This document shows, piece by piece, positions 17,730 to 64,000 of a stretch of DNA of 64,000 nucleotides (position 1 is its first letter; the number at the start of each line of letters is the position of its first letter). The stretch is taken from the NCBI GenBank assembly GCA_012295275.1, contig CM022676.1, forward strand, positions 4,092,001 to 4,156,000, written 5' to 3'. A program made the position numbers and the translations under genes. This DNA is from Chrysomallon squamiferum. Its lineage: Eukaryota > Animalia > Mollusca. Under the pieces are notes generated by a model. That model saw only the letters and a program-made list of their open reading frames with translations, did no database searches and had not been told where the DNA came from.

Positions 17730-17777
<48 letters not shown>

Positions 17778-17899
17778 CTATTAATAACATTAATATTAAT
17801 AATGACTAATAATCATCGACATCAAGAACATAGTGGAAGTAGATTATAGTAGTAGAATTAGTGGTAGTGGTAGTAGTAGTAGCAGCAGCAGTAGTCCGC

Positions 17900-17946
<47 letters not shown>

Positions 17947-18787
17947 GAATAGTAGTAAATTAATAACAAATTTGGATAAATGTGATAACGTTTTTTTTGT
18001 TTTAGGAGGTCCTAGTGAATCGCTTCATCTCACTTCCCTTCTGACCAAATCTGTTTTGTCTGTCGCGGAAGGAAGTGACGTCACGCTGATATGTTCTGCG
18101 AAATGCTTCCTGACATGTGACTATGAATGGCAGGTCAGAGGTCACGTGATAAGTAATAGCAGTGTTCTCTCGTTGGCTGATATTAATAGAACACAAAATG
18201 GTTTGTACACGTGCACGGCCACAAACCCAGATACGAAGGAAACATCCAACCAGACTGTGAAAATTAATATAGAGGATTTGAGAGGTTTTACAAGCTTTTA
18301 TAAATATATATATTTATTTTTATAAAGTAAAAAACACGAAAATTTCAATACAGTTGCTTCCATTTTTCTTCTTCTTTCATTTATTTTTCTTTAATTTCTT
18401 TATTTTGTCTTCTTCTTTCTACAATTAAATTTTTTCTTGATTTAAAAAATAAAGTGTTTTTTTTTCTTCTTTCATTCTTTGTCTTTCCTTCCTTCGTTCA
18501 TTCGTCCAAACAGTGGTGGTTCTTTTACTTTTGATTAGTCGTAGTAGAAGTTGTAGTAGAGGAAGCCGTGGTGGAAATAATTTGTAGTAGTAGTAATTTT
18601 ACTTTTTGTTTTTGTTATGGTAGTAATAGTATAGCAAAAGCAGAAGTTTGTGGTAATAGTAAAATGGTAAAGCACTAATTTGTGTTGGTAGTCGTACTAG
18701 TAATACTAGTTAAGCCGTATCATTAGTAAGAATAGTAGTAGTAGTAGTAGAACAGTAGTTTGTAGCAACAGCAGTCGTAGTAGTAAC

Positions 18788-18828
<41 letters not shown>

Positions 18829-18831
18829 AAC

Positions 18832-18883
<52 letters not shown>

Positions 18884-19454
18884 ACATAACAGCAATAGTA
18901 GTAGTGGCTATATTAATAGAGCTATATTACTGTTACGGTTCTTCCTTTAAATACTTCTTTCTTTTTTTTTTTAATTATTATTTTAATATCTGAAAATACA
19001 CAAACGCGCGCGGACAACAATATTTCTTACGACTTAAAAAATATAAAATAATTGCCCAATTCATTCTTACTTTATATAATTTTATTTTATTTTATTTTGT
19101 TTTATTTTTTTTATTTTTTTTTTAATTTCATTTTTTATTTTTTTTTTTTTTTTATATTTATATTTATATTCTTATTTTTATTATTGTATTTTATTTTAGA
19201 TCCAGATAAAAATAACAGTCATTTTGCAGAAGGATTTGCTACTGGTTTTGCTGTCGTCGTAGTCATACTTGTTGGTGCCGCGTTATTTTTGTTCTTCTGG
19301 TTGAGAAAACGTAAAAGGTGAACAAAAATTAAAACTGCACTGAATTTTGTTTTACTGAGAAGCAAAGGACACTGGCGTTGGACAGTAAAAATTTATTTAT
19401 AATTAGCTAATTACAAATCACAGCTGTTAACAACAATAACAACAACAACAACAA

Positions 19455-19492
<38 letters not shown>

Positions 19493-20249
19493 GAAAATAA
19501 AAAATTCGTATTCAGCAATTGGGATATATTTTGGTAACAGAAAAGCTAATGATATAACTGGGATTAACCACGGATATGTCAAGGATACTATATGGATATA
19601 CTGGGATATGCTATTCATCTAATGCTATCCGTTAGAGATAACATAAAGGTTTCATAAGGGAAGGTTATTTATATTCTACATATGGTAAAATGTATCATCA
19701 AAATTATTATTTGTTACTAGTAGTACTCCTCGTACTACTACTACTACTACTATTACTACTACTACTACTACTGCTAATAGTCTACCATATTACTTTACTA
19801 CTGGTTCTGATATTCTACTTACATGGTAAAATATATCACAGATAGGTTATGAATAAACCTAAACGTATGGACTAACAGAGATCGTACAATAGAGATAGAT
19901 TAGGGACATCGTAGAGATAATTTAGATATAATTTAGTAATATGGAACAGATATGGTAGGCCTGTATTCTGGATAAACTAATGATATATAGCAAGTGAGAC
20001 ATCTTTAGCCTTTAGTAATTAATTAAAAATGCCTATATATATATATAATTATAGCCAATTATTATAGAGTATCTTCACCTATATTTTAGCATTAATATTA
20101 GAAATATTTAATTTAAAAAATATATACATATAATTAGGGTTTATTAATTTTATTTCCAATTATTTTTATCTATATTTAATTAATAAGTTGATGCGAGTAA
20201 TTAATGATATGTGTATTTTAAATTTTTCTTCTTATTAATTAATTTTCGG

Positions 20250-20281
<32 letters not shown>

Positions 20282-20843
20282 CAGAAAGCAAAAAGAAGAA
20301 AACATTTATTACAATCCAGCCCAAGACAACGGTAAAATAAATTTCTTTGGTTTTTAATGTTTATAGTGAAAGTATTCTGTACACACTGTTATACAGACAC
20401 ATACATACATCCATATGTCAATCCACGCTTTGTATATACGCTTTTTTATTTTTGAGTTCCCATCGTGGTTTTTTCTTTTTTCCATCATCATCATTATCAT
20501 CACCATCGTCGTCGTCGTCATTGATGTCGTTGTCATCATCATTATTATCATCATAACCATCATTATTATATATCATCATGCTTTTACTATTATTTTCTAC
20601 AAATATCTATCGTGTATCTTTTTTTTAAATTATTTATGAAATTTTGGTACCAAAGTATTAACAGGTAACTGTCTAATTAACCGGTATCTCTCTATTTCTA
20701 TTGCAGCCAATGAAGCGCCACCTGGTGACGAAACAGAGGAAAACGCCAATACATACTCCTCACTTGGGGTTCGAGAAAATGTCGAACCCTATGACGTCTT
20801 AAAGTTTGAGAACCAATCACAGAATGCCAGCGAAGCTATCTAA
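16292..20843 (+). CDS. Type-I Ig-superfamily receptor B1: signal peptide, V-like Ig, C2/I Ig, TM, YYN, ITAM (~314 aa)
   Basis: Exons 16292-16349 (MSCKIFCVFVLLGSVIYVQG), 17116-17421 (FTFTC..W..WRC), 18006-18284 (VTLIC..YEW..GLYTC), 19200-19317 (TM plus RKRKR), 20285-20331 (ENIYYNP) and 20707-20843 (NTYSSLGVRENVEPYDVL). All junctions are GT-AG and phase-compatible. Confidence 0.9.
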
Positions 20844-21842
20844 GTTTCACAGACTCCGAGTGTTAAAGCTTTACCAAAAGGACATTTACGAAAACAACAA
20901 TTTTCTGTAAAAAAAAAAAAAGAAAAAAAAAAAAATGGAAATTCGCTTCCGACTAATGTGTTCCTGTGCAGTTTAAATAAACAGTTTAATAACATTCTTA
21001 ATTATTTCTGTGTTATTATTTTATTGTATTAAGGCACTTGGCAATGGTCATAGTAAAATATTACTATGAAGTAATTCTGTTACAAAACAGTTAAATGACG
21101 TCATGCTACTTGTAGACTATGACAAATGGAGTTGTGACGTCATGGTGGACTTTCAGCTGTATTTTTTCTGACAATACTGGAAAAACGTTTAGAAGAATTC
21201 TGTCTACCGTGTACGTCATGACGTCACAATTACAGAAAGAATGCCTATCTATCTATCTATCCATCTATATATATATACACACACAAACACACATACATAC
21301 AGATACACACACATACATACATAAAAAAAACACACACATACACACAGAGATATATATATATATCGTTACTAACGATGAAGAAAATACACTTATTCATTAA
21401 TCAGGATTTTTCTAATTAGTTTTTCCCTTTTGATATCGTATAATAATTATCATTTGGTCATGAATGTCTTGGAGTATTTTTATCTAATAATAATAATAAT
21501 TTTGTTCATGAAATTGATAAATATTTCCAACCAATAATGATCGTTCTTTGGTTTATGGGGTTTTTTTCAGACATTTCGATCTAATAATTATCATTTTTCA
21601 TGAATTTCTCCTAATATTTTCCGATTATTATAGTTAGTATCAAAAATATAATTTTATTTTTCCAGACATTATTTGGTATGGTATGTGTTTCTGTATGTAA
21701 AAAATAATAACATTAGTTACAAACAGTTCAACTAGTGGGAGGATAATTGGAATGGTTAGATTGGAAATTAGCTTAAAAAGATTAGCAACGGAGTTTTGTA
21801 TAATAATGTACCATTGATAAGAAATCTCACAAATATATTATA

Positions 21843-21894
<52 letters not shown>

Positions 21895-21962
21895 GCCGTC
21901 GTTGACTTTCACACTAAAAAGTCACGATTGTTTGTCTCTCCCCACCTTTTTTCTTCTCTCTC

Positions 21963-25401
<3,439 letters not shown>

Positions 25402-25442
25402 ATTCTGAAATAAAAATGATGAACAATAAAATAAACATTTAG

Positions 25443-25617
<175 letters not shown>

Positions 25618-29193: not shown

Positions 29194-29393
29194 NNNNNNN
29201 NNNNNNNNNNNNNNNNNNNNNNNNNNNNNNNNNNNNNNNNNNNNNNNNNNNNNNNNNNNNNNNNNNNNNNNNNNNNNNNNNNNNNNNNNNNNNNNNNNNN
29301 NNNNNNNNNNNNNNNNNNNNNNNNNNNNNNNNNNNNNNNNNNNNNNNNNNNNNNNNNNNNNNNNNNNNNNNNNNNNNNNNNNNNNNNNNNNNN
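29194..29393. other. Assembly gap (200 N)
   Basis: Run of N. The round length suggests a placeholder. About 3.5 kb would be needed to complete A5. Confidence 0.99.
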
Positions 29394-30060
29394 AGAAAAA
29401 GACAAAGTTTTCGAAGGTTTTACGCATGATCGGAGATGACGTAGTTTGTCAGTGTGTTAAATAATAATAATGTAAAAACTCAAAGTGTAATCAGTTTCGT
29501 GTAGACAGTCTTTTCTTAGACTCCTGAAGTCAGTCGATTGAATCCAGTCTATTACAGATTACACTCTATTACAGTCTATTTTACAAAGAATATAAAGGGT
29601 GTTTTACTTACGAAACAGAAAGTAAACGTGGTGACTCATCAACAGAAAAGAAAACAAGGAAGAATTTAAAACAAAAAAACGTAGCTTAGAAAGTATATAC
29701 TTTTATTAAAGACAGTGAAAACTAAAATACTGGAAATGAGTTGTAAGTTATTCGTGTTACTGGGATGTGTATTGTACCTACATTATTTATCTCTATCTGT
29801 GTTAGTCTCGTTTCATAAAATGTGAAATCTGGGTGCAGTCGACGTCATTACTAAGGTAATAACTGGGTAACATGAAGTCTTGAAATATGTTTATCAAAAT
29901 ATGAAACAATAACGTAACATAAGATAACACAGGATAACATAATATATCATGATATGACAGTACACCACACAACGTAACGGAACGCAATGTAACATAATGT
30001 AATACAATATAAAAGTATGTAATAAAGGAAGAATAAAAATAACAAGAAAACAACAACAAG

Positions 30061-30099
<39 letters not shown>

Positions 30100-31164
30100 T
30101 AACCCACATTCCTGTATAAACCGAACACAACAGAAAGAGTGTGCTACTCAATGACTTGACAGAAAGAGTATCATGTGTTTTGGGTTATATCTTTTGTGCG
30201 TAGTCTTTCATCCATGTCTGGTTATAGACAGAATGGTAGAGTTACAACATACTAGAGTAAAACTGACCAAGTCATGTCATGACGTAAGAAACAAAAATTG
30301 ACAAACAGCTATGTTGCCTAGGTTACGCCACAATTCAAAATGGCCGCCCTTTCTCGCTGCAGCAAATAATTTTGTTATGAAATATCGCCTCAGAATTTGA
30401 ACAAAGATTTCTAATTCTTAAAAATGCACAAGCACACTTACTTACAAACACACACACATACACACAAACACGATTGCACACACACACACACACACAGACA
30501 CATATATATATATGTATACACACATATACAAACATACATTGATACACGAAATACACACAAACACATATACCACCTACCTACCTACGTTCATAAATATTAT
30601 ATATATATGCATATATGAATATACATATATATATTAAACACACACACATATACACACATATGCATGCATAGATACAAACTTAACTACTTATAAACATATC
30701 TATATACAAATCTGTATAAATGCAAATATGGAAATGCACACACTTGTAAGGTTAAAATACCTTCAAATATAGCTATACACGTACATGAATACACTCAGGC
30801 ATCAACAAATAATAATAATAAAAATAATAAATAAATAAATAAATAAAAAGAAAAAGAAAAAAGAAAAAAGAAAAAGAAATAAAAAAAAAAAAAATAAAGA
30901 AAAAAACAACAACACATAAACTATACGTACAATTTACATAAACTATTTACAACCCTGCATGTTATATCTCAGGTTGCATTGTGTATTTTTCTGATTCAGT
31001 CGACTGGATTTAGTTTAGTAATAAATACACAGAGCCAATGAGACATGTGTTCATATTGTGTATGAAGCAGGAAGTAAACTTGATACGTTAAACGAATAAA
31101 GCACAACAAGAAGGCGTCGAAAACTGCTTTTACATTAGCAACAGTAAAAACTAAAATACTGGAA

Positions 31165-32571
31165 ATGAGTTGTAAGATATTCTGTGTGTTCGTGTTGCTG
31201 GGATCTGTAATTTACGTACAAGGTATGTATTTTATATTCTCCATCCCCCAAAACAGACAGACGTCCCGTAAAGTATAGTATAGCATAAACAACACATAAC
31301 ACAGTGGAGCGTGTTTGCTAATGAACTGCCGCTTATATTGAATAATACATGTAATAAATTATGGACTGGTCTGATATAACTAAATACCAAACAGAAAAAA
31401 AGTATATAAAATTAGATTTATTTATACATTTATTTGTAGATTTATTAATTGCATTTGCCAGATAGGAAATAGGCTCTCGTTGTTGCTTGTATGAACAGAC
31501 TGGAGCATACCATTAAATCAGCGAGGGGTGTACAGGATACATGACCCAATAAAGAGTTTTGTCTATCAAATGGCGTGTCTGCATTATGGGCTATCTGTCG
31601 GTCTTTTGTGAGGGAACCATTCATCTGTACCTGAGTGCATTTCGTTTACAAACTGTGAAATCTAGATTGAGTCGAAGTTATGTTTCGTTCACTAATGTAA
31701 ACAAATATATATGCGTAATTGTGTGATTTGGATTTTTGAAATATATCTGTATTAAAACATGGGACAATAACATAACATAATATAACATAACAGAGTGTAC
31801 CGTAAGGTAATGTAAACATAATGTAATAAACGTAAAAATTATGGAATAAAATATAGTAATTATAATCGTCATCATAATAATAAAAAAATAAATAAATAAA
31901 TAAATAAATAAATGTAATTATATATAAAAAAAAATATTTAATTTTATTTGAATTTTTCTTCTTATTATTATTTTAAATTTAAGGTCAGGATTACAATTTA
32001 ACAACATCAGACAGATACGCAGTTGCTGGATCATCTTTTACTTTTACCTGTCGAGGAGATCGTGCTCCTCTAATTACCTGGTTTGAGAATAACACAGAAT
32101 ACATAATGGAAGTACTAGGAAGATACGGTCCGTGTATTTCTCATAGTGAACATCCAGAAGAATACACTTTTAACTGTTCATATGAACTAAACACACTGAC
32201 AATAAAATCAGTGAACCTCAGTCAACATGGAACAGTGTGGAGATGTGGTGAACTCGGACCAGGCAGCAATGAAATCAAACTGGAAGTCAGAGGTAAAATT
32301 ATTTTTATTATTAATAATTTTAATACCGTACCTATTAGATGTCGTTAATAGTTTTATTACCTACTGTTACAACTTTTTTTGTTTTGTTTTGTTTTCATTT
32401 TTGTTTTTGTTTAAATATATAGTACATAAGCTATGAGAATGCGAGCATACACTATCAAGGAAAACAATAACAATTGTAATAACAATAACAACAACAATAA
32501 TAACAATAATAATATAGAAGTCACTCTGCATATTGTATTCCGCAAAGAGGCTTTAATAGTACTAGTATTTT

Positions 32572-32636
<65 letters not shown>

Positions 32637-34355
32637 TGATGATGATGATGATGATGACGATGATGGTGTTAATAACACTAATATTAATAATGATTAATAA
32701 TCATCGACATCAAGAACATAGTGGAAGTAGATTATAGTAGTAGAATTAGTGGTAGTGGTAGTAGTAGTAGCAGCAGCAGTAGTCCGAAGTAGTAGTAGTA
32801 GTAGTAGTAGCAGTAGGAATAGTAGTAAATTAATAACAAATTTGGATAAATGTGATGACATGTTTTTTTTTTTGTTTTAGGAGGTCCTGGTGAATCGCTT
32901 CATCTCACTTCCCTTCTGACCAAATCTGTCATGTCTGTCGCGGAAGGAAGTGACGTCACGCTGATATGTTCTGCGAAATGCTTCCTGACATGTGACTATG
33001 AATGGCAGGTCAGAGGTCACGTGATAAGTAATAGCAGTGTTCTCTCGTTGGCTGATATTAATAGAACACAAAATGGTTTGTACACGTGCACGGCCACAAA
33101 CCCAGATACGAAGGAAACATCCAACCAGACTGTGAAAATTAATATAGAGGATTTGAGAGGTTTTACAAGCTTTTATAAATATATATATTTTTTTTTTATA
33201 AAGTAAAAAACACGAAATTTCAATACAGTTACTTCCAGTTTTCTTCTTCTTTCATTTATTTTCTTTAATTTCTTTATTTTCTTTTCTTCTTTCTACAATT
33301 AAATTTTTTCTTTATTTAAAAAAAGTGTTTTTTTCCTTCTTTCATTCTTTGTCTTTCCTTCCTTCGTTCATTCGTCCAAACAGTGGTGGTTCTTTTACTT
33401 TTGATTAGTGATAGTAGACGTTGTAGTAGAGGAAGCCGTGGTAGAAATAATTTGTAGTAGTAGTATTTTTACTTTTTGTTTTTCTTATGGTAGTAATAGT
33501 AGTAGCAAAAGCAGTAGTTTGTGGTAATTGTAAAATTGTAAAGCACTAATTTGTGTTGGTAGTCGTACAAGTAATACTAGTTAAGCCGTATCATTAGTAA
33601 GAGTAGTAGTAGTAGTAGTAGAACAGTAGTTTGTAGCAACAGCAGTCGTAATAGTAACAATAGTAGTAGTAGTAGTAGTAGTAGTAGCAGTAGTAGTAGA
33701 ACAGTAGTTTGTAGTAACAACAGTCGTAGTAGTAACAGTAGTAGAAGTAGCAGCGGCAGCAGCAGTAGTAGTAGTAGTAGTAGTAGTAACATAACAGCAA
33801 TAGCAATAGTGGCTATATTAATAGAGTTACGGTTCTTCCTTTAAATACTTCTTTCTTTTTTTTTTTAATTATTATTTTAATATCTGAAAATACACAAACG
33901 CGCGCGGACAACAATATTTCTTACGACTTAAAAAATATTAAACAATTGCCTAATTCATTCTTACTTTATATAATTTTATTTTATTTTATTTTTGTTTTAT
34001 TTATTTATTTTTATTTTTAATTTCATTTTTATTTTTACTTTATTTTTTTTACATTTATATTTATATTCTTATTTTATATTATTGTATTTTATTTTAGATC
34101 CAGATAAAAATCACAGTCATTTTGCAGAAGGATTTGCTACTGGTTTTGCTGTCGTCGTATTCATACTTGTTGGTGCCGCGTTATTTTTGTTCTTCTGGTT
34201 CAGAAAACGTAAAAGGTGAACACAAATTAAAACTGCACTGAAATTTGTTTTACTGAGAAGCAAAGGACACTGGCGTTGGACAGTAAAAATTAATTTATAA
34301 TTAGCTAATTACAAATCACAGCTGTTAACAACAATAACAATAACAACAACAACAA

Positions 34356-34427
<72 letters not shown>

Positions 34428-34665
34428 TAAAATAGAAAATAAAAAATTCGTATTCAGCAATTGGGATATATTTTGGTAACAGAAAAGCTAATGATATAAC
34501 TGGGGTTAACCACGGATATGTCAAGGATTCGACATGGAAGATACACTGGGATATGCTGTTCATTACAGATAACATAAAGGTTTCATGAGGAAAGGTTATT
34601 TATATTCTACATATGGTAAAATATATCATCATCATTATTATTTGTTACTAGTAGTACTCCTCGTT

Positions 34666-34708
<43 letters not shown>

Positions 34709-35792
34709 AGCTACTGCTAATAGTCTACCATATTACTTTACTACTGGTTCTGATATTCTACTTACATGGTAAAATATATCACAGATAGGTTATGAATAAA
34801 CCTAAACGTATGGACTAACAGAAATCGTACAATAGAGATAGATTAGGGACATCGTAGAGATAATTTAGATATCATTTAGTAATATGGAACAGATATGGTA
34901 GGCCTGTATTCTGGATAAACTAATGATATATAGCAAGTGAGACATATTTAGCCTTTAGTAATTAATTAAAAATGCCTATATATATATATAATTATAGCCA
35001 ATTATTATAGAGTATCTTCACCTATATTTTAGCATTAATATTAGAAATATTTAATTTAAAGAATATATACATATAATTATGGTTTATTCATTTTATTTCC
35101 AATTACTTTTATCCATATTTAATTAATAAGTTGATGCGACTAATTAATGAAATGTGTATTTTAAATGTTTCTTGTTATTAATTAATTTTCGGTATATATA
35201 TATATATAATTTCAGAAAGCAAAAAGAAGAAAACATTTATTACAATCCAGGCCAAGACAACGGTAAAATAAATTTCTTTAGTTTTTAATCATTATAGTCA
35301 AAGTATTCTGTACATACTGTTATACAGACACGTACATACATCCATATGTCAATCCATACATATATACGCTTTATTATTTTTGAGTTTCCATCGTGGTTTT
35401 TTCTTTTTTCCATCATCAACGTTATCATCACCATCGTCGTCGTCGTCATTGATGTTGTTGTTATCATCATTATTATCATCATAATCATCATTATTATATA
35501 AACATCATCATCATGCTTTTACTATCATTTTCTCTTTAAGTAGATCTACAAATATCTATCGTGTATCTTTTTTTTAAATTATTTATAAAATTTTGCTACC
35601 AAAGTTTTAACTGGTAACTGTCTAATTAACCGGTATCCCTCTATTTCTATTGCAGCCAATGAAGCGCCACCTGGTGACGAAACAGAGGAAAACGCCAATA
35701 CATACTCCTCACTTGGGGTTCGAGAAAATGTCGAACCCTATGACGTCTTAAAGTTTGAGAACCAATCACAGAATGCCAGCGAAGCTATCTAA
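31165..35792 (+). CDS. Ig-superfamily ITAM receptor B2 (~315 aa)
   Basis: Exons 31165-31222, 31984-32292, 32881-33159, 34098-34215, 35216-35262 and 35656-35792. Same architecture as B1. Tail ENIYYNP..YSSLGVRENVEPYDVL. Confidence 0.9.
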
Positions 35793-36799
35793 GTTTAATA
35801 GACTCGGAGAAATTCGAATACAGAGTGTTAAAGCTTTACCAAAACGACATTTACGAAAACAACAATTTTCTATAAAAAAAACAGAAGAAAAAAAAAAGAA
35901 TTGTAATTCGCTTCCGACTAATGTGTTACTGTGCAGTTTAAATAAACAGTTTAATAAAATTCTTAATTATTTCTGTGTTATTATTTTATTGTATTACGGC
36001 ACCTAGCAATGGTCATAGCAAAGTATTACTGTGAAGTAATTCTTTTACAAAACAGATAAATGACGTCATGCTACTTGTAGACTATGACAAATGGAGTTGT
36101 GACGTCATCGTGGACTTACAGCTGTATTTTTTCTGACAATACTGGAAGAAAGTTTAGAAGAACTCTCTCTACCGTGTACGTCATGACGTCACAATTACAG
36201 AAAGAATGCCTATCTATCTATCTATCTCTATATATATATATACATATATACACATACATACACACACATACATACAGATACACAAACATACATACATAAA
36301 CAAACACACATACACACAGAGATATATATATATCGTTACTAACGATGAAGAAAATACACTTGTTCTTTAATCACGATTTTTCTAATTAGTTTTTGACTTT
36401 TGATATCGTATAATAATTATCGTTTGGTCATGAATGTCTTGGAATATTTTTATCTAATAATAATAATAATTTTGTTCATGAAATTGTTAAATATTTCCAA
36501 CTAATAATGATCGTTCTTTGGTTTATGATTTTTTTTTTCAGATATTTTGATCTAATAATTATCATTTTTCCTGAATTTCTCCTAATATTTTCCGATTATT
36601 ATAGTTAGTATCAAAAATATATTTTTATTTTTCTAGACATTATTTGGTATGGTATGTGTTTCTGTATGTAAATAATAATACAATTAGTTGCAAACATTTC
36701 AACTAGTGGGAGGATAATTGGAATGGTTAGATTGGGAATTATCTTAAAAAGATTAGCAACGGTGTTTTCTATAATAATGTACCATTGATAAGAAATCCG

Positions 36800-36856
<57 letters not shown>

Positions 36857-36924
36857 GCCGTCGTTGACTTTCACACTAAAAAGTCACGATTGTTTGTCTC
36901 TCCCCACCTTTTTTCTTCTCTCTC

Positions 36925-38165
36925 TCAGTGTGGAATGTGTCCCCTGCGAATAAACTTCATCATTTTTATTGTTTCTGTTCCTGTAAATTTGAATTCTTCT
37001 TTCAGGATGTGTTCATTCAAATCAGCGAGCACGCAGCCGTCTACGGATTCTTTCTTAAACGTGTCAATGTGTCTCCCCAACCTCAAAGCTTTCATCACTT
37101 CCCCAACCTCAGCTATTGTTAAATCGTTCCGTTCTTTCTTAAAAACAGCTTCTCCTCTGACGTAATTATCTCCACTGTTGCTGGTGACGTAATCGTCTTT
37201 CCCAGCGATTTTAACTTCAATCTGACTGCTATTTTTATTGACGTCATGATTATTCCTGTCTTCCGTGACGTCACAATTATTGCTTTCTCCTTCACGAGGA
37301 CCTCTAGACTTGTAATCGACACTGTTACCTGCTGTGTCGTAATCATTTTCTCTACCTCGAGTAGTCTTCTCGTTACCTGTTCTGACGTAACTATCTCTCG
37401 TGACGTAATCATAGTCACTAGTTCTGTTATTGTAAGTCGATGACGCTTTTTCAGATGAAAGGACAGAGTGGCGAGGTGGTAAGGGAGGGGGGATAACATC
37501 AGCACTCCTCTCATTACTGGGTGGCTCTGCGCGTGGTTTCAGGGGCTTTGTTCTATAAATAGGTTTCGCAGATAGAGGAGTCGCGACGGTTTCCTGTTTG
37601 GCTGATTGAGTTATCTCTCTTGATTTATTTTCTCCGTGGAAATGGGAACAGTCGGATAAGGTCAAATACTCTTCTTGATGTTTCGCAAATCTGAAAAATC
37701 GGTCAGGTTCTAGTGTCTCGTAAATATTGTCTCCTTGGGTCGTGTCCACATCCACTTGTTTGTACACAGCAATATCTGAAGAAAAATAAATAACAGAGAA
37801 TAAATAGATATAAAACAAGCAAACAAACAAACGAACAAACAAACAAACAATAAATAAATAAATAAATATATAAATATCAATATAAATCGATACAAATATA
37901 AATATAAATATACAAATAAATAAATAAATAAATAACTATTTATATATTTTTTCTCACTCTGTTACTTACTTTCGTTTCCTGTTTTCCCATCGAAAATGAT
38001 TCCCTTGGCTGCGATTTCGATATCGCTAACAAACTGCTGAAAATGTTCTTGCGTCATATCCTGTATTCCTGTTACTAGAGACACCAGAACGTTCTGAAGA
38101 TACAGTGGAATCAGAATCGTGTGAGGTTCCAAAATTCCTGGAAATTAGATTGTCATACAATAATT

Positions 38166-38262
<97 letters not shown>

Positions 38263-40313
38263 TATTTATAGATAGAAAAACACAGAGACAGATAGAATGA
38301 CAGACAGACAGGTTATCAATGCTTAGCTGTCACATACCTTCACAAATACAATTTGCTGTGCAGTACAATTCATCGTACATCTCAGAAACTGTTATTTTTC
38401 CAAATGATTTTACTCTGGTTTCAGTGTTACCCACATCAAATCTGCATTCATCTGACACAGCGAACTCAACCTGTACTGGCAGCGAGTGAGTGGACAAAAT
38501 GTCTGATAATAACTGACCCTGTCCACCTGGTCAGATTAATAAGGATTATGTAATAGCAGCAACAATAACAACAACAACAATAATAATAATCACAGCATTA
38601 TGTTCTCTATAAATTATATTTATTTCATTACATTAAATACATTACAGGTCATCATATTACACTTCATGATAATTATATTACATTATATTATATTGTTACT
38701 TTACCTAGTATGGCATAGAATACCATAGTATAGTGTAGTACAGCATACTCTAGTAAATAATGTTGTAGCATAATACTGTATAGTATAATATAGTATACAT
38801 TAGAATAGGTAAGTATAGCGTAGCATAGTATAATATAATATAGTATAGTGTTTGGTAGTATAGCACAGTGTAACATAATATGGCGAAGTATAATACACTA
38901 TAATATAATTCAGTGTTGTGTACAGTAATATAGAGTATAATACAGTAGTACAGAGTAGTTTATTTTATTTATACCACAATGTAACATGTATAGTATAATA
39001 CAGCATAGTGTATTGTAATGTAGTTTAGTATCATACACTGCAGTGGTACACTCACGTTTATTTTTGGTGGTACAAACACGGAAGGGTAAAGGGTAGTTTA
39101 AGGGTATCGTGATGTTACGTCCAGAGCTATCTCTAGCTATCAGTCTTCTTTGTTTACAAACACTGTGTATTCGCATCACCTGTGTAGAACAGATAGACGA
39201 ACAAACAAACAGCATTATTAAAAATAATAATAATAAAAAAATAAAAAATAAAACAAATTATATACATATACATTAATCCACAATGAAATTAATAAATAAA
39301 TATATAGAAATAAATCAATTAAATACAACAAATAAAAACAAAGATATAACTAACCTGTCCCGTCCCTATCGTATCCAGTTCCGTACCACCGTCGTATCCT
39401 TGTGTACCAACAACGATTTTTGGTAAATGGTACTTGTACGCGTCACAAAAATCTCTCAGTGTCAACTTCTGTCTGCCATGTTGGAAAATGGCGTTCTCAA
39501 TCTGAAGATAAAACAAAAATGAGTAATTTGCGTTATACATGTATAAGGTGATTGTGAATGTGATGATGGTGATAATGAAGATTATGGAAATGGTAATGCA
39601 ATGATCATGGAGATGATGACAACAACATCAGTAAAAGCAAGAATACCAATAATGAAAGTGTATAATGAAGATGATTATGATAACAACGAGAACAACAATG
39701 TCTATACTGATGATGTTGATGATAGTGATAATAACAACAATACTACTACTTTTACCACTACTACTGTTACTACTTCTCCTACTACTAATACTACTAACAA
39801 TAACAATAACAAATTATAATAATAATAATAATAATAATAATACAATCAGAAGAAGCTCAATACTAATAAAATAAATAAAATGAAAATGAAAATGATGATG
39901 ATGATGATAAGAAGAAGAAGAAAAAGAGGGAAAAGACAGTGATGATGATGATGACGATGATGAAAAATAACATATTAATGATTCAACTGATGGTTTCACA
40001 CACACATAAATATATACATACATACATACACAGACAAACACACACACAGACACGCACATACTCTCACGCACACATTCAGATAAATAGATATGCATGTATA
40101 TAGAAAGACAGAGGAAGAGACAGATACACAGACTAAGAAAAGATAGATACTGAAAGACGTAGAGACAAAAATATTATATTTAAAGAAAGATTTGTTGTTA
40201 TTTACGCTACACATGTACATGTCTAAAAGTATGTATTTAGAAAAACAAATTCTTACTTTTAACTGCGGAATTCTGCGCCATTTTCCACGAACATTTTGCC
40301 ATTCGGTTTCCAT
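36925..40313 (-). CDS. GAREM-like CABIT / proline-rich / SAM adaptor A4 (~511 aa)
   Basis: Exons 40313-40257, 39501-39355, 39179-39056, 38526-38338, 38137-37970 and 37775-36925. Open frame throughout. Closest to A3. Confidence 0.88.
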
Positions 40314-40351
40314 ATTCTGAAATATAAATGATGAACAATAAAATAAATATT

Positions 40352-44640
<4,289 letters not shown>

Positions 44641-45049: not shown

Positions 45050-45478
45050 TTAGATAGCTTCGCTGGCATTCCGTGATTGGTTGTCGAACTTTATGACGTC
45101 ATAGGGTTCGACATTTTCTTGAACCCCAAGTGAAGAGTATGTACTGGCGTTTTCCTCTGTTTCGTTACCAGGTGGCGCTTCATTGGCTGCATTAGAAATA
45201 GAGGGATACCGGTTAATTAGACAGTTACCAGTTAAAACTTTGGTAGCAAAATTTCATAAATAACTGAAAAAAGATACACGATAGATATTTGTAGATATAC
45301 TTAAAGAGAAAATAATAGTAAAAGCATGATGATGATGATGATGATGATGTTTATAATAATAATATAATAATGATGATGATGATGAAGATAATGTTTATAT
45401 AATAATGATGATTATGAACGTGATGTTGATAATAATGATGATAACAACAACATCAATGTCGACGACAACGATGGTGAC

Positions 45479-45509
<31 letters not shown>

Positions 45510-47935
45510 TGAAAAAGAAAAAACCACGATGGAAACTCAAAAATAATAAAGCGCATATATGTATGGATTGATATATGGATGTATGTATGTGTCTGTATAA
45601 CAGTGTGTACAGAATACTTTGACTATAATGATTAAAAACTAAATAAATTTAGTTTACCGTTGTCTTGGGCTGGATTGTAATAAATGTCTTCTTCTTTTTG
45701 CTTTCTGAAATTATATATATATATATATATATACAGAAAATTAATTAATAACAGGAAAAATTAAAAAAAACAGATTTCTTTAATTACTCGCATATATATA
45801 AAAGTAATTGGAAATAAAATTAATAAACCATTATGATTATTATTATTATTATTTGTTTTAAATTAAATAATTCTAATATTAATACTAATATAATAGGCAA
45901 AATTAGTCTATATTAAGAGACATCGTTGATTAATTACTAAAGGCTAAAAATGTCTCACTTGCTATATATCATTAGTTTATCCAGAATTTAGCTCTACCAT
46001 CTCTGTAACATATCCACAAATTATATTTAAATTATCCTACGATATCTGTGATCTATCGCTGTTATACGATTTCTGATATTCATTAATTATCTGTGATACT
46101 ATGTAAGTATAATATTAGAACCAGTAGTAAAGTAATATGGCAGAGTAGTTGTAGTAGTAGTAGTAATAGTAATAGTAATAGTAATAGTAGTAGTAGTTCT
46201 TGTTATTGTTGTATCTATAGTATTAGCTGTAATAGTAGTAGATGATGATGATGATGATGATGATATATTTTACCATATGTAGAATATAAATAACCTTCCC
46301 TTGTGAAACCTTTATGTTATCTCTAACGGATAGCATTAAATGAATAGCATATCCCAGTGTATCCATATAGTATCCTTGACATATCCGTGGTTAATCCCAG
46401 TTATATCATTAGCTTAATGGAAATACAAATTAATTAACTTTTGTTTTCCTGTTCAATACAACTGCACTTTTTTTATCAGTAACAGAAAATTCAGAACAAT
46501 TTTAATTTTTGTTCACCTTTTACGTTTTCTGAACCAGAAAAACAAAAACAACGCGGCACCAACAAGTATAAATACGACGACAGCAAAACCAGTAGCAAAT
46601 CCTTCTCCAAAATGACTGTTATTTTTATCTGAAAATAAAATGAAATAAAATAAAATAAAAATATAATAAAATAAATTAAAATATGAATGAATTAGGCAAT
46701 TATTTACAAACGTTTTAAGTCAAGATTTTTTGTTGTGGGCACATGCGTGTGTATTTTCAGAGATTACAGTAATAATGTTTAAAAAAAAAAAGTACCTTAA
46801 AGAAGAACAGTAACTCTATTAATATAGCCACTATTGTGACTGCTGTTATTCTGCTCCTACTACTACTACTACTGCTACTGCTGTTACTACGACGACTACT
46901 ACGACTGCAGTTATTACTACTACTCTTTCTAATGTTACGGCTTAACTAGTATTACTCTACGACTACGAACACAAATTAGTGCTAAAAGAAATATCCAAAA
47001 GAAGAACAGTAACTCTATTAATATAGCCACTATTGCCATTGATGTTATGTTACTACTACTACTACTACTGCTGCTGCTGCTACTTCTACTACTGTTACTA
47101 CTACGACTGCTGTTACTACAAACTACTGTTCTACTACTACTACTACTATTCTTACTAATGATACGGCTTAACTAGTATTACTAGTACGACTACCAACACA
47201 AATTAGTGCTTTACCATTTTACTATTACCACAAACTACTGCTTTTGCTATACTATTACTACCATAACAGAAACAAAAAGTAAAAATACTACTACTACAAA
47301 TTATTTCCACCACGGCTTCCTCTACTGCTACTTCTACTACGACTAATCAAAAGTAAAAGAACCACCACTGTTTGGACGAATGAACGAAGGAAGGAAAGAC
47401 AAAGAATGAAAGAAGAAAAAAAAAACTTTTTTTTTAAATCAAGAAAGAATTTCATTGTAGAAAGAAGAAGAAAAAATAAAGAAATTAAAGAAAAAGAAAT
47501 GAAAGAAGAAGAAAAATGGAAGTAACTGTATTGAAATTTCGTGTTTTTTACTTTATAAAAATAAATATATATATTTATAAAAGCTTGTAAAACCTCTCAG
47601 ATCCTCTATATTAATTTTCACAGTCTGGTTGGATGTTTCCTTCGTATCTGGGTTTGTGGCCGTGCACGTGTAGAAACCATTTTGTGTTCTATTAATATCA
47701 GCCAACGAGAGAACACTGCTATTACTTATCACGTGACCTCTGACCTGCCATTCATAGACACATGTCAGGAAGCATTTCGCAAAACATATCAGCGTGACGT
47801 CACTTCCTTTCGCGACAGACATGACAGATTTGGTCAGAAGGGAAGTGAGATGAAGCGATTCACCAGGACCTCCTAAAAAAAAAAAAAAACATGTCATCAC
47901 ATTTATCCAAATTTGTTATTAATTTACTACTATTC

Positions 47936-47980: not shown

Positions 47981-48885
47981 TTACTACTGCTGCTGCTGCT
48001 GTTGCTGCGGCTGCTATTACTACTACTAAAACTACTACTGCTACTGCGGACTACTGCTGCTGCTACTACTACTGCTACTACTACTACTACTATCACTACT
48101 TCTACTACTATAATCTACTTACACTATGTTGTTGATGTCGATGATTATTAGTCATTATGAATATTAGTGTCATTAACATCATCATCGTCATGATCATCAA
48201 CATCATGTCGATAATCATCATCATCATCATCATTATGATTATTATTATTATTATTATTTAGAAAATACTAGTACTATTCAAGCCTCTTTGTGCAATACAA
48301 TATGCAGAGTGACTTCTATATTACTATTGTTATTATTGTTATTACAATTGTTATTGTTGTTAAATATATACGCATCGCATAACAATATGTACTATATACT
48401 TAAAGAAAAACAAAAAGAACGGTACGGTATTAACAAAATTAAAAAAAAAAAAAACATTTTTAAATATAAACGTTTTAAGAGTAGGTAATTGTTTTTTTTA
48501 ACGACATCTAATAGGTACGGTATTCAAATTATTAATAATAAAAATAATTTTACCTCTCACTTCCAGTCTTATTTCATTGCTGCGTGGTCCGAGTTCACCA
48601 CATCTCCACACTGTTCCATGTTGACTGAGTTTCACTGATTTTATTGTCAGAGTGTTTAGTTCATATGAACAGTTAAAAGTGTATTCTTCTGGATGTTTAT
48701 TAAGAAAATAACATGGACCGTATCCTCCTGCTACATGCAATCTGTATTCTGTGTTATTCTCAAACCAGCTAATTACAGAAAGAGTAAATCCGCGACAGGT
48801 AAAAGTAAAAGATGATCCAGCAACTGCGTATCTGTCTGATGTTGTTAAATTGTAATCCTGACCTTAAATTTAAAATAATAATAAT

Positions 48886-52424: not shown

Positions 52425-58161
<5,737 letters not shown>

Positions 58162-58492
58162 TTCCAGTTTCGACGCCTTTTTTGTTTTACTGCTGTTAAT
58201 GTAAAAGCAGTTTTCGACGCCTTCTTGTGTACTTTATTCGTTTAACGTATCAGGTTTACTTCCTGCTTCATACACAATATGAACACAGGTGTCACTGGCT
58301 CTGCATGTTTATTAATAAACTAAATCCACTCGACTGAATCAGAAAAATACACAATGCAATATGTCACACAGCGTTGAATTTTGAATAGTTATTTCTGCTT
58401 AGAATTTTTTCTTCTTCGATTTTTTATTTTTTTCTTTTATTTTATTTCTTTTTTTATTTATTTATTTTTTTTTTTTTTTTTATTTTTTTTTT

Positions 58493-58527
<35 letters not shown>

Positions 58528-58669
58528 CCTATTTTTTTTTTATGTATATTGAAAATATAGTATATATGTTTTGTTGTATTTTACCTGAATAGGTGTCGTT
58601 ATTTCCATGTTTGAATATATACATGTAGTGAATATCTATATATGTGTGTGTTTGTGTATGTGTGCGTTT

Positions 58670-58701
<32 letters not shown>

Positions 58702-58985
58702 GTGTGTGTACATACATGAATGTACTTTGTGTAAATGTGTGTGTGTGTGTACATCTGCAGTGGTACACACACCAGCAGTATTATATAGGTTTTATTTGAT
58801 TTTTTAAGAGAAAAATATATATATATATATATAGTAGTTGGTGCAATGTATATACAACATTTATGAACGTAAATGGTATATGGGAAGCGTGTGTGTATAG
58901 ATTAAGAAAATTGTGCAAAGGACAGTTATCAATATTGTTTGTATGGATGATGTCCATTGAATTTAAAGCATGATATCATAAAACA

Positions 58986-59335
58986 CAGTGGTACCTTGTA
59001 TTCGACTTGGTTAGTGCCCGTAAATTCGATATGTGTATGAACCATACTGAAGAGTCAGCCGAAAAGGCTGTTAAACGTTAAAATAATTTGTCCGATCTCC
59101 AAGATAAATATTCTTTACAAAACCAATTAATTTCTTTCTGTTTATTTTTTTTTTTTTTTTTTTTATTATTATTATTTTTAAAAGTTACCAAAAATGGGGG
59201 GGGGAGTTCGGAGCTTGAGTGGATTAATTGTATTTCAGTTAATTTCAGTTGGTAAAAACTGATTTGATATACGGGAAAACTGACTTACGAGCTCTGCCAC
59301 GGAACGAATTAAACGCGTAAGTCAATGTACCACTG
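58986..59335. mobile_element. Possible non-autonomous Tc1/pogo-type MITE remnant
   Basis: Imperfect terminal inverted repeats CAGTGGTACCTTG ... CAATGTACCACTG, about 350 bp. Not evident in the homologous regions upstream of B1 and B2. Flanks are CA/TG rather than a clean TA duplication. Confidence 0.45.
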
Positions 59336-59704
59336 TGTGTGTGTGGTGTTTGTGTGTCTGTGTGTGTGTGTGTGTGTGTGTGTAGTGTGTTTCTCTTTTT
59401 ATAATCAGAAATTTTTTAATCAAAATTCTCGGGGGTGATAATTTATTGGCTGCAGAGATAAAGGGCGGCCATTTTGATTTGTGGCGTTAACCTAGATAAC
59501 ATAGATGTTTGTCAAGTTTTGTTTGTCATGTTTTGACATGGCTGACCCGTTTTACTCTGGTATGTTGTAACTCTACACTCTATTTAAAACCAACCGTGAA
59601 TGAAAGAAAACGCACAAAAGATATAACCCAAAACACAAATACTCTTTCTGTCAAGTTATTAAGTAGCATACTTTTTCTATTTTGTTCGGTTTTATACTGG
59701 AATA

Positions 59705-59754
<50 letters not shown>

Positions 59755-60808
59755 TCTGTGTGTTATTATTGTTGTTTTGTTATTATTATTATGTTCACTT
59801 TATTACATATTTTAATATTGTATTACATTACGTTATATTGCGTTACGTTATTCTGTGTAGTCTACTGTCATGTTATGATATATTATGTTATCCTGTCTTA
59901 TATTATGTTATGTTATTGTTTCATATTTCGGTCTTTGTTACATAAGCAACAATAAGCAATAAAATCAAACAGTACAGAGAGAGACATTTAACAGGAAACA
60001 TGCAGACGCAGAAACAATGTTTAAAAAAATATAATAATAAATAAATCCATTCCAAGCCGTGTATTACAATATAAAAAATATAAAAAAATCGATTCGTACG
60101 CCCGAACCCTCGTCCAACTTTTACAGAATCATCACATAGAATTATGCTTCACTCAATGTAAACAGACAATAAAAATATGAAAAACTCACAAGTATCACCA
60201 AAAAAGAGAACAGCTTGGACAGATATAGTTTACGAAGGTGTGGAAAAGAAACTCTTGATAGTATAAAAAATAAAAAACTTTAAATATAGTTTTATTCTGC
60301 CATTGTCAGCCAGGAATTACATTTCTCACGTTACTGTTATACAATAAAATAGAGACTTTCATGACGTCAAGGATCTTACATCTGAGCAAATATAAAAAAT
60401 TAAAAGATGAAAAATGTGCGAATGAGACCAGTGTTACCGAGATTGATCAAATCTTTCTTTTAATTAATGTACAGGGGTGTAAATATTTAAATTTTACGTC
60501 ATAAATCTCCCGAAATTTTCACATAGTTCGAGTCACATCTCAGACAATGTTATAGAATGATTAAAAATTCGCTATTAGCAACTCATTAAAGTATTTATAA
60601 CATTTCTCACAGGTAGCTATTTACACAGTTCAAATCTGGTGTCACTTTAGAAACTGAAGTCTTTGTATTTTAATTAAAAAAAAACTTTTAACAAATTAAT
60701 ATGCTACAAGTTTTCATAAAACAGTTTTAAGAAGTACATGATTAACAAATAGAACTTGTTTTCTTCTTTAACATTCATGACAACAATTTCGTTTATTTTC
60801 AAACTTTA

Positions 60809-61847
60809 TCACATCTCTGTATCTTGTTGTACAGCCGCTGGCGCAGTCTGATTATCTGAAACATGCAATGAAATTTTCCTTTCTATAAAAACTTGTGAGG
60901 TATGGAGAAAACAATAATCGTGCTAACGTGTGTGTATGTACACATATATAAACACACAAACACAATTTTAACATAAAATAACTATTTAGTTAAGGTGTAT
61001 ATGAAACATAAATGAAATTAGTATTTAGAATGTTTCTATTTTAAGGCTATCTCATCAAATCGAAAATCGAAAAATTCGAAAATTTCTAAACATTTCGGTT
61101 AAGGCTTTGTCAACTTATATATATATATATATATATATATACGATTTATAACCGGAAAAGAAACAACTATATCTATCTATCTATCTCTCTATCTTTATAT
61201 GAATGACATATTCCCATTCTCTATACATCATAACAGTAAGACAACCTTGTTGTTTTCTTTTGTGAAAGTGTCTGAATAAATGTATGATTAGCAAATAATA
61301 CTTATTTTGTTCTTTATCATTTATTAACATCAGTTCACTTACCATCAGGTATTAAGACGTCATATGCGAACTCATATCCTCTTTCTCCTAGAGAAGAATA
61401 TGAATTCTCTGAATCTTGAAGTTCTGCTGCTGCTACAGTCTGATTATCTGAAACATGGAATTAAATTATGTTTTGTTTTATTTAAAAATTGTAATGTGCG
61501 GAGAAAACAATAATCGTGGTAAGGTGCGTGTGCATATATATATATATATAAATACACAAACACATAGATACATACATACATATATAGATACATAAATATA
61601 CATCGATGTAAGACTGTGCATGTGGCTGTGTATACTATATTTTACAGCTATTTCAAAATCATTTACAAAGTGTCTCTCTTCAAAATCTAGAACAATTTTA
61701 ACATTTCAAACAAAGACCCTTCTAGACAAACACATTTATCAATCTACTTAAAACTATTTCGAACATATTTAGAATCTATTCTTTCTCAAAATCTGTAAAA
61801 CATCTAATACTTCGGAACAACAAAAGGAAAAGAAAATACATTCTTTG

Positions 61848-61885
<38 letters not shown>

Positions 61886-62964
61886 CTGTACCTTCTATTG
61901 AATTAATTCGTAAATGTATGTATGTATATATGTATTTTACACCTGTACCTTATATTCAATAAAACAAAAAAGTTTTTATCGTTGTTTTAATGTAAGCTAT
62001 GTGTGTGTGCATGTACATCTGTAATGTACGTATGTCTGTGTGTACCGATGTACGTATTAATTAATATATAATTGTAAGGATGGATCATTTGTCATTTAAA
62101 ACAATTTTAACATAAAATAACTATTTGTTAATTACATATGAATTATAAATGGAATTAATATTTTGAATGTTTCTATTTTAAGTCTATCTCATCAAATCGA
62201 AAACATAAAAGTTAAAAATTCTATTTCGTTAAGGTATTACATGTTATATATAAATCGAATTAATATTTAGAATCTATCTATCTTCTATCTATCTATATTT
62301 CTATCTATCTATCTATATATCTATCTATCTATCTCGAAAATCTATCTATCTATCATGTAAAATCTATCTTGTTTCTTTTTCGTGTGAAAATGTCTGAATA
62401 AACGTATGATTCAAACACATACTCGTTTTCTTCTTTATCATTTATTAACATCAGTTCACTTACCATCAGGTATTAAGACGTCATATGCGAACTCATATCC
62501 TCTTTCTCCTAGAGAAGAATATGAATTCTCTGAATCTTGAAGTTCTGCTGCTGCTACAGTTTGATTATCTGAAACATGGAATTAAATTATATTTTGTTTT
62601 ATTTAAAAGTTGTAATGTGCGGAGAAAACAATAAAGGTGCTAACTTGTGTGATATATATATATATACACACACACAAACACATAGATACATACATACAGA
62701 TATAGATACATAAATATACATCGATGTAAGATTGTGGATGTGACTGTTTATATTATATTTTACAGCTATTTCAAAATCATTTACAAAGTGTCTCTCTTCG
62801 AAATCTGAAAACATTTTGACATTCCAAACATAGAGACTTCGAGACAAACACGTTTATTAATCCACTTAAAACTATTTCGAACATATTTAGAATCTATTCT
62901 TTCTCAAAATCTGTTAAACATGTAACACTTGGAACAAAAAAACGAAGTGAAAATACATTCTTTG

Positions 62965-63053
<89 letters not shown>

Positions 63054-63461
63054 TGTATATATGTATGTATCTATGTATATATTTCTGTACCTTATAGTGA
63101 ATTAATTAACAAACACAAGTTTTTACACATATATTAATAAGACCAAAATATCATTGTTTACCTGTAAGCTATGTATGTGTGTGTATGTAAATCTGTAATG
63201 TACGTATATCTGTGTGTACCGATGTACGTATTAATTAATATATAATTGTAAGGATGGATCCTTTGTTATTTAAAACAATTTTAACATCAAATAACTATTT
63301 AGTTAAGCTGTGTATGAATTATAAATGGAATTCGTATTTTGAATGTTTCTACTTTAAGTCTATCTCATCAAATCGAAAATTCAAAAATTCCGAAAATTCC
63401 GAAATATTTCGTCTAAGGTATTGTCAACCTATATATATACGATTAATCACCGGAAAAGAAA

Positions 63462-63530
<69 letters not shown>

Positions 63531-63765
63531 GTCTATCTATCTATCTATCTATGTATCTATCTATCTTGTTTCTTTTTTCGTGAAAATGTCTGAATAAACG
63601 TATGATTACCAAACAATACTCGTTTTCTTCTTTATGATTTATTAACATCAGTTCACTTACCATCTGGTATTAAGACGTCATATGCGAACTCATATCCTCT
63701 TTCTCCTAGAGAAGAATATGAATTCGCTGAATCTTGAAGTTCTGCTGCTGCTACAGTTTGATTAT
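60809..63765 (-). CDS. 3' part of receptor B5 (starts beyond the window): at least 3 tandem ITAM exons plus a terminal exon
   Basis: Phase 1-1 105-nt exons 63765-63661, 62568-62464 and 61447-61343, each TTTCAG|..|GTAAGT and encoding [13 protein letters not shown][A/E][21 protein letters not shown]. Terminal exon 60855-60809 ([15 protein letters not shown]). The 3' flank 60.1-60.8 kb is homologous to the B4 3' flank 51.8-52.4 kb. Confidence 0.8.
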
Positions 63766-64000
63766 CTGAAACATGGAATTAAATTATATTTTGTTTTATT
63801 TAAAAGTTGTAATGTGCGGAGAAAACAATAAAGGTGCTAACTTGTGTGAATATATATATATACACACACACAAACACATAGATACATACATACAGATATA
63901 GATACATAAATATACATCGATGTAAGATTGTGGATGTGACTGTTTATATTATATTTTACAGCTATTTCAAAATCATTTACAAAGTGTCTCTCTTCGAAAT
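60860..64000. repeat. Tandem ~1.1-1.2 kb exon+intron repeat, continuing past the window edge
   Basis: Near-identical exon-bearing blocks at about 61343, 62464 and 63661 (periods 1121 and 1197 bp). Confidence 0.9.

Follow-up and report, generated by a model that had tools for sequence, protein, structure and literature searches.

How can a receptor that signals through one tyrosine motif come to carry several of them in the same cytoplasmic tail? The question is raised by a 64,000-nt stretch of the snail Chrysomallon squamiferum (contig CM022676.1, positions 4,092,001 to 4,156,000; hereafter the window). Near its right end, on the minus strand, lie three near-identical 105-nt exons, each coding for one ITAM (immunoreceptor tyrosine-based activation motif). 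Why a receptor should have several ITAMs has long been asked, with nearly all the work done on the T-cell receptor and on engineered receptors. Judged by their sequence, these three cassettes arose by tandem copying of the last exon, the one that bears the ITAM, in a gastropod family of receptors with immunoglobulin (Ig) domains. They are likely spliced consecutively into a tail with three or more ITAMs. Four paralogous receptor genes of the window, B1 to B4, serve as the reference, and the positions of all features are collected in Table 1.

The three exons announced by a sequence-only reading of this DNA were all found, each with a tttcag acceptor, a gtaagt donor, a stop-free frame and phase 1 at both ends. 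All three therefore show the properties of a symmetric exon (length a multiple of three, equal end phases, AG/GT borders). Because the length is 105 nt and the phases are 1-1, the frame is preserved at any copy number, and joining cassettes 1 to 3 gives a single open frame with three ITAMs. Every cassette encodes YSSL-x8-YDVL, which places two YxxL/I elements at the 6-8 residue distance typical of ITAMs. The consensus applied was D/ExxYxxL/Ix6-8YxxL/I, taken from PMC2832619. The di-tyrosine pattern arose in 0.39% of 100,000 residue shuffles of the cassette exon. The consensus [I/L/V/S]xYxx[I/V/L] of the inhibitory counterpart, ITIM (PMC9546547), was not matched, the residues at -2 being Asn for the first Tyr and Phe for the second. 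Only 3 of the 105 columns vary among the cassettes; two of these changes are synonymous and the third is an Ala/Glu exchange at -3 from the first Tyr, with Ala in copy 1 and Glu in copies 2 and 3. The third Tyr reported in the spacer is indeed present, though it is not conserved in the receptor family: its codon is one base away from the Asn codon of B1 and B4. A special role for it was rejected, as EFA follows it, the residue is Asn in B1, B3 and B4 and the Asn-type base occurs in 14 contigs of X1, a DNA-like sequencing run. A Pfam scan of the 36-aa cassette exon gave no match and the ESM Atlas no usable match, a word-indexed protein search with the ITAM exon found nothing, and a degenerate pattern of the cassette exon had 0 matches among metagenome contigs.

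The donor overlaps an old stop codon. The cassette sequence GGT-AAG-TGA aligns, without indels, on the last two codons and the stop of B4, and the donor thus corresponds to the ancestral end of the coding sequence. The GT of the donor is absent from the B4 terminal exon and from the fourth unit of the array described below. Since the stop is retained in register beneath the donor, every cassette is also readable as a full terminal exon; splicing at the donor puts this stop inside the intron. About 80 nt of ancestral 3' flank are kept in every unit of the array. Among X1 contigs of the family, 22 carry an A before the same GT, and 2 match the intron side of the donor and diverge in the exon.

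The unmasked intron parts of the units show 9-14% divergence in addition to indels, and the array has no assembly gap; it is therefore not one collapsed sequence. The sequence-only reading described the region 60809-63765 as three exons. The three cassettes stand, and the segment 60809-60855 is a fourth, terminal unit, in which a 46-nt deletion has removed all three tyrosines and created a frameshift with a stop after 15 codons. The sequence following it matches the 3' flank of the B4 terminal exon, which identifies the fourth unit as the terminal exon of the array gene; this flank is likely the ancestral 3' untranslated region. At the other end, the 235 nt upstream of copy 1 are identical to those upstream of copy 2 in 235 of 236 columns, and the corresponding intron of B4 matches in 139 of 247. 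The array therefore probably extends past position 64000, in agreement with the earlier claim that it runs off the window, and at least one further unit is probable upstream of copy 1, beyond the window end. No homologs of the YxN, 31-nt or transmembrane (TM) exons were found inside the tandem units.

The exons have diverged less than the sequences around them. Variable columns among the three units number 3 of 105 in the exon and 47 of 310 in unmasked intron (Fisher p=0.0004). Copy 3 differs from copy 2 at 1 of 105 exon sites and at 20 of 224 near-flank sites (p=0.0035), and the same comparison of copy 3 with copy 1 gives p=0.026. Over the eight motif codons, copy 3 and B1 show 0 nonsynonymous and 4 synonymous differences, against about 9 nonsynonymous differences in the spacer. 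In copy 3, B1 and three proteins of the vent snail Gigantopelta aegis, the two Tyr, the SSL and the last Leu show no variation. By this sequence comparison the ITAM itself is old and family-wide and only its multiplication is lineage-specific. The multiplication proposed earlier is thus retained, with a number that differs between paralogs, and does not extend to the origin of the motif, which G. aegis homologs share.

Assembled contigs of three RNA runs (X2, X3 and X4) and of X1, whose kind is unrecorded, were compared with one 276-nt stretch, 61240-61515, made of copy 3 and its flanks; the RNA runs share 0.02-0.05 of the words of 54050-63990. In one contig of X3 (record 9; 500 nt, depth 3.4), a YYNV exon is joined directly to four tandem ITAM units. 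Within its first 48 nt, the 30 letters shown are all identical to the YYNV exon of B4 (52780-52809), and the intron that spans 234 nt in B4 between this exon and the ITAM unit is missing. The unit offsets are 87, 105 and 105 nt. Compared with copy 3, unit 1 has 18 changes in 103 nt, and it shares most of the B4-type substitutions; unit 2 agrees with copy 3 at 35 of 35 nt and unit 3 at 63 of 64 nt, as far as the donor; unit 4 runs through the donor position, which is altered at -1 and +5. No stop interrupts the 31 letters shown between units 1 and 2, which keep the frame. As the units join at exact exon-length offsets, the donor register was used: tandem ITAM units are joined at this register in the receptor family, as shown by one contig of a relative. 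The conversion of a terminal ITAM exon into a symmetric, repeatable internal cassette by means of GTAAGT, which had been proposed, holds in its core, one RNA contig of a close relative having such units joined at the expected splice positions behind a YxN exon. Since neither its unit lengths nor its last exon agree with those of the array gene, record 9 comes from a paralog or from another haplotype. Among the runs compared on the 276-nt stretch, no RNA contig matched the array gene end to end; X2 and X4 gave no contig there, which is no proof of absence. In X1 the same stretch was matched by 205 contigs at 80-100% likeness (26, 44, 51 and 84 by likeness class), among them variants that end the ITAM with another sequence, lack 6 nt or skip 81 nt. 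This suggests that the genome holds many more ITAM exons, some of them degenerate. The summed depth of X1, near 5000 against 24-107 per listed single contig, hints at many paralogs and was unused as a copy number.

We propose that the array gene probably encodes a single-pass Ig receptor whose tail carries a YxN motif and three or more ITAMs that recur every 35 residues, followed by a short last exon free of ITAM. The tail is short and probably disordered. The ancestral last codons and stop, (G/A)GT-AAG-TGA, can double as a consensus 5' splice site, as is visible in the sequence. Duplication of the exon and its acceptor downstream would have given this latent donor a partner, and splicing would then remove the stop. 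The last unit of the array gene would subsequently have lost its ITAM, and would now only end the frame; the deletion is observed, and the order of the events is our reconstruction. Clustering by a ligand would lead to phosphorylation by Src-family kinases and to recruitment of a Syk-type kinase, as in the oyster receptor CgIgR and in vertebrate ITAM receptors. The output might rise with the number of ITAMs, as it does in the T-cell receptor (PMC4428620). By this analogy, the prediction is that the tail sends a stronger signal via a Syk-type kinase than do the one-ITAM paralogs, and the receptors of the family would likely differ in signalling strength according to ITAM number. Such a route from a terminal exon to a repeatable internal exon, via a donor overlapping the old stop, is a simple one.

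Several observations weigh against this model. Between copies 1 and 2 the exon is not more conserved than the near flanks (2 of 105 against 3 of 224, p=0.66), because their upstream intron has been homogenised; gene conversion may contribute, and it can mimic selection. The TM and Ig exons of the array gene fall outside the 64-kb window, and copy 1 lacks the acidic residue at -3. Record 9 is one contig of low depth in one of the three RNA runs, and the other two X3 contigs bear intron-type sequence, which indicates that the library contains unspliced or genomic molecules. Nor is record 9 the array gene as assembled, given the divergence of its unit 1 and the 87-nt length of its unit 2. The 5' halves of its units 3 and 4 remained unaligned at 80%, its last unit retains the ITAM region, and stretches of 69 and 47 letters between its pieces were unseen, among them the second half of the unit 2 ITAM, where a stop could lie. 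In a rival reading, the cassettes might serve mainly as alternative last exons, the donor being ignored and the retained stop and poly(A) signal used, which would yield one ITAM in most transcripts or, by poly(A) choice and not by skipping, a mixture of one to n. Such a use is suggested by the ancestral stop, in register in all three copies with AATAAA 9 nt beyond, by the persistence of the ancestral 3' flank in every unit and by the reading of the last unit of record 9 through the donor position. However, that read-through unit has a weakened donor whereas copies 1-3 have the full consensus, and the exact exon-length offsets of the record 9 joins speak for use of the donor register. AATAAA or ATTAAA is moreover common here, with 13 occurrences in 4.2 kb of the AT-rich minus strand at the array, and poly(A) sites adjoining strong donors are usually suppressed by U1. 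We regard this use as distinctly unlikely.

It is improbable, too, that the array gene is dead or decaying, a product of recent birth-and-death amplification whose exons resemble each other through gene conversion, with multi-ITAM tails made only by other paralogs. The broken last exon with its frameshifting deletion, the frameshift in the neighbour B4, the lack of an RNA contig matching end to end, the lack of upstream exons within the window and the homogenisation of copies 1 and 2 would fit a decaying gene. Against this, no defect is seen in the six splice sites or the three frames, though the introns have diverged by 9-14%, and the excess of near-flank over exon changes between copies 3 and 2 would not be expected; a stop codon in the last exon, furthermore, does not trigger decay. 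The tail could also be built as modelled and its tyrosine pairs act otherwise than as activating ITAMs, as endocytic YxxL signals or as docking sites for other SH2 proteins. In favour of this, the ITAM assignment was made from sequence alone, the motifs of Hydractinia Alr proteins have been called ambiguous between ITAM and ITIM (bioRxiv 10.1101/2022.03.25.485889), and B1-B4, like copy 1, miss the acidic residue at -3. Yet two species have the same 8-9 residue spacing despite drift in the spacer sequence, a constraint that single sorting motifs would not need, and the Asn and Phe at -2 fall outside the ITIM consensus; we judge non-activating motifs to have a small chance of being the right account. 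An assembly artefact multiplying one exon is extremely unlikely. A gap of 200 N at 29194-29393, beside a near-duplicate at 14.9 kb, shows that the assembly is imperfect elsewhere, but the array is gap-free, its units are 9-14% substituted and carry indels, and an independent RNA contig has four tandem units.

Table 1. Features of the multi-ITAM array, of the paralogous receptor genes and of their relatives in Gigantopelta aegis
Feature	Position or accession	Strand	Remarks
ITAM cassette exon 1	63661..63765	minus	105 nt, phase 1-1; first bases of Tyr codons 63718, 63694 (spacer) and 63682
ITAM cassette exon 2	62464..62568	minus	105 nt, phase 1-1; Glu at -3 from first Tyr
ITAM cassette exon 3	61343..61447	minus	105 nt, phase 1-1; Glu at -3; reference for RNA comparison
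Donor GTAAGT over ancestral last codons and stop	63643..63660	minus	TGA 63655-63653; AATAAA 9 nt later, starting 63643
Same donor/stop/AATAAA layout, copies 2 and 3	62463-62446, 61342-61325	minus	
Tandem array	60856..64000	minus	Distances between successive acceptors 1197, 1121 and 592 bp; free of assembly gaps
Fourth, terminal unit	60809..60855	minus	Acceptor intact; no donor; 46-nt deletion
3' flank of fourth unit	60127..60815	minus	70% over 704 columns against 3' flank of B4 terminal exon
B1 terminal exon	20707..20843	plus	One in-frame ITAM, YSSL-x8-YDVL
B2 terminal exon	35656..35792	plus	One in-frame ITAM, YSSL-x8-YDVL
B3 terminal exon	45050..45186	minus	One in-frame ITAM, YSSL-x8-YDVI
B4 terminal exon	52425..52539	minus	Closest DNA homolog of cassettes (84%); no donor
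B4 cytoplasmic 47-nt exon	52774..52820	minus	YYNV (YxN) motif
B4 ectodomain	54063..57297	minus	Five Ig-type exons and TM exon 54063-54179
G. aegis 'CEACAM-like' relatives	XP_041372832.1 (P0003); XP_041373956.1/XP_041373955.1 (P0016/P0116)		TM and one ITAM each

The paralogs show the layout from which the cassettes would derive. In B1-B3, two Ig exons, the first of them V-like, are followed by a TM exon, a 47-nt YYNP exon and a terminal exon with a single ITAM; in B4, five Ig-type exons precede a TM exon, one exon of 31 nt, one of 47 nt with YYNV and the terminal exon. There are thus two cytoplasmic exons in B1-B3 and three in B4, and the whole ITAM lies within one exon. Four of the B4 Ig-type exons have a Pfam Ig match at E<=0.003 and the third has none. 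The TM segments of B1-B4 contain no charged residues, and their ectodomains have 2-5 Ig domains. The location of the ITAM within a TM protein's cytoplasmic tail follows the B1-B3 gene models and the G. aegis homologs. A homologous terminal exon in B1-B4 had been described, and it carries an in-frame ITAM in B1-B3; in B4, as assembled and with the conserved acceptor used, a 2-nt insertion in a G run (near 52498-52502) puts the ITAM out of frame. The frame would be restored by an AG that lies 8 nt downstream of the B4 acceptor, and the B4-type unit of the RNA contig is without the insertion; a null allele, a splice switch and an assembly error are candidate explanations of the defect. The number of ITAMs is accordingly 0 in B4 as assembled, 1 in B1-B3, at least 3 in the array gene and probably 4 in the source of record 9. 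This variation is one between genes; tuning by exon skipping or by copy-number differences among individuals, which the sequence-only reading also suggested, would be a hypothetical further layer. This natural series of near-identical ITAMs, built independently in a mollusc, could be compared in chimeric-receptor assays.

The family reaches beyond C. squamiferum. A profile of five window Ig domains retrieved 113 proteins, the best being G. aegis RefSeq proteins named 'CEACAM-like' or uncharacterized. These have in common with the window receptors the V-like domain and the second Ig domain (E as low as 1e-69, P0002), a similar glycine-rich TM segment (46% over 28 aa) and a YSSL-x8/9-YxxL motif, with a single ITAM each, unlike the array gene. 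The window receptors thus show the Ig-TM-ITAM composition of the peltospirid CEACAM-like family, to which the cassette is linked by its DNA homology to the B4 terminal exon. A crude scan found a hydrophobic segment in 46 of the 113 matches, 6 of which have one ITAM-like motif and none more than one; the searched library holds one protein per 50% cluster, and this lack is no proof of absence. The tail of P0016/P0116 contains short internal repeats before its single ITAM, and an extra terminal Tyr motif, and tail length would thus appear to be altered by repeats in G. aegis too. An orthogroup named 'CEACAM5' is expanded to 130 genes in G. aegis and 101 in C. squamiferum, and four 'CEACAM5'-named genes are up-regulated in the symbiont-housing gland (PMC7895826); in the available portions of its main text and 10 supplementary files, ITAM is unmentioned. 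Going by the names, the window receptors would belong to this orthogroup. Chemosymbiotic snails may on this basis have activating immune receptors among their expanded 'CEACAM-like' genes, which until now have only been counted. The snail name 'CEACAM-like' is an automatic best-hit label, and the ESM Atlas look-alikes of the window Ig domains are mostly molluscan unnamed or V-set clusters.

CD3-zeta, a signalling adaptor, has hardly any ectodomain and an acidic residue in its TM segment, and the 35-residue ITAM period of the array is close to its spacing. The paralogs B1-B4 have neither the very short ectodomain nor the acidic TM residue of CD3-zeta/FcR-gamma adaptors, and the array gene is not assigned to that family. 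Like the predicted tail of the array gene, CD3-zeta (CD247) has several ITAMs per chain (three), and this multiplicity amplifies signals (PMC4428620); the snail ITAMs, unlike those of CD3-zeta, occur in an Ig receptor family with uncharged TM segments, each ITAM being a whole exon. The vertebrate activating CEACAMs (CEACAM3, which drives phagocytosis of bacteria, and the marsupial ITAM+YxN forms) have, as in the snail family, an IgV-like N domain in a fast-evolving cluster and a YxN on a small cytoplasmic exon before the ITAM (PMC2832619). Their tail is made of four conserved cytoplasmic exons with one ITAM, a layout that the snail family does not have (PMC2832619). The oyster CgIgR is, like the window family, a molluscan Ig-domain membrane receptor with a cytoplasmic ITAM; this ITAM recruits Syk and drives ERK signalling and phagocytosis, and differs in being single and in its flanking sequence (PMC6994640). 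The Alr proteins of Hydractinia, from an unrelated lineage, are likewise clustered invertebrate receptors of the Ig superfamily with ITAM/ITIM tails. Two ITAMs are reported for Alr2B and Alr2C, and Alr1A swaps tails via alternative exons; a tandem symmetric ITAM exon is not described in the available text of PMC9546547 and bioRxiv 10.1101/2022.03.25.485889. The tyrosine motifs of Botryllus FcoR3/FcoR4, which also belong to the invertebrate Ig superfamily, change by allele and splicing, swapping ITIM and hemITAM, with no multiplication of a full ITAM in the available text (PMC12582321). Searches of open-licence papers, in which most subscription journals are not represented, found no report of tandem amplification of a symmetric exon holding a whole ITAM in an invertebrate. 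Ig receptors with ITAMs are already known from invertebrates, two-ITAM tails among them, and the exon-cassette multiplication of the ITAM, as read from this sequence, would be new.

The receptors are interleaved with four genes of a second family, located at 5919-6795 (+), 13190-14191 (+), 21963-23003 (-) and 36925-37935 (-). Their last exons are large and contain PPP(L/I)PPR motifs, numerous DY motifs and a SAM domain (Pfam SAM_1 E 3e-5 to 0.05). Their upstream exons, e.g. 24176-24304 (-) and 39051-39179 (-), show weak CABIT matches below the cut-off (E 0.05-0.14). In the word-indexed protein search the CABIT-like exon had no match, and an Ig exon matched only a fish hemicentin. We take these genes to resemble Grb2-binding adaptors of the GAREM/Themis type, and YxN-bearing receptors may thus be co-clustered with SAM/CABIT-like adaptor genes. 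A wider and unlikely picture is that of an ITAM dosage dial in a vent-snail family of about 100 genes: the donor latent in the terminal exon would allow any tandem copy to turn internal, 0 to 4 or more ITAMs would be distributed across genes, alleles and splice or poly(A) isoforms whose Ig ectodomains are similar yet diversifying, the CABIT-like/SAM adaptors would be coupled to YxN via Grb2, and responses toward symbionts and pathogens would be tuned in the manner of the T-cell receptor. If true, this would be an independently built invertebrate counterpart of T-cell-receptor signal tuning.

The cluster itself bears marks of duplication. A segment of 11 kb with one receptor and one SAM gene (14478-25542) is repeated 14.9 kb on, at 29394-40453, with 92.6% identity; the run of 200 N at 29194-29393 adjoins it, and the repeat is either a recent duplication or an uncollapsed haplotype. 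The sequence 59333-59928, upstream of the first Ig exon of B4, has inverted homology of ~80% to 15003-15602 and 29897-30497, upstream of those of B1 and B2, and likely holds a leader exon or promoter. Between paralogs, the proportion of nonsynonymous differences (pN) is only 0.01-0.03 in the second Ig domains (18008-18274, 32883-33149, 47604-47870). In the V-like domains (17118-17420, 31986-32291, 48555-48860, 56992-57297) pN reaches 0.07-0.14, about equal to or above the synonymous proportion pS, a pattern that would suit either ligand-binding domains under diversifying pressure or domains shuffled by conversion.

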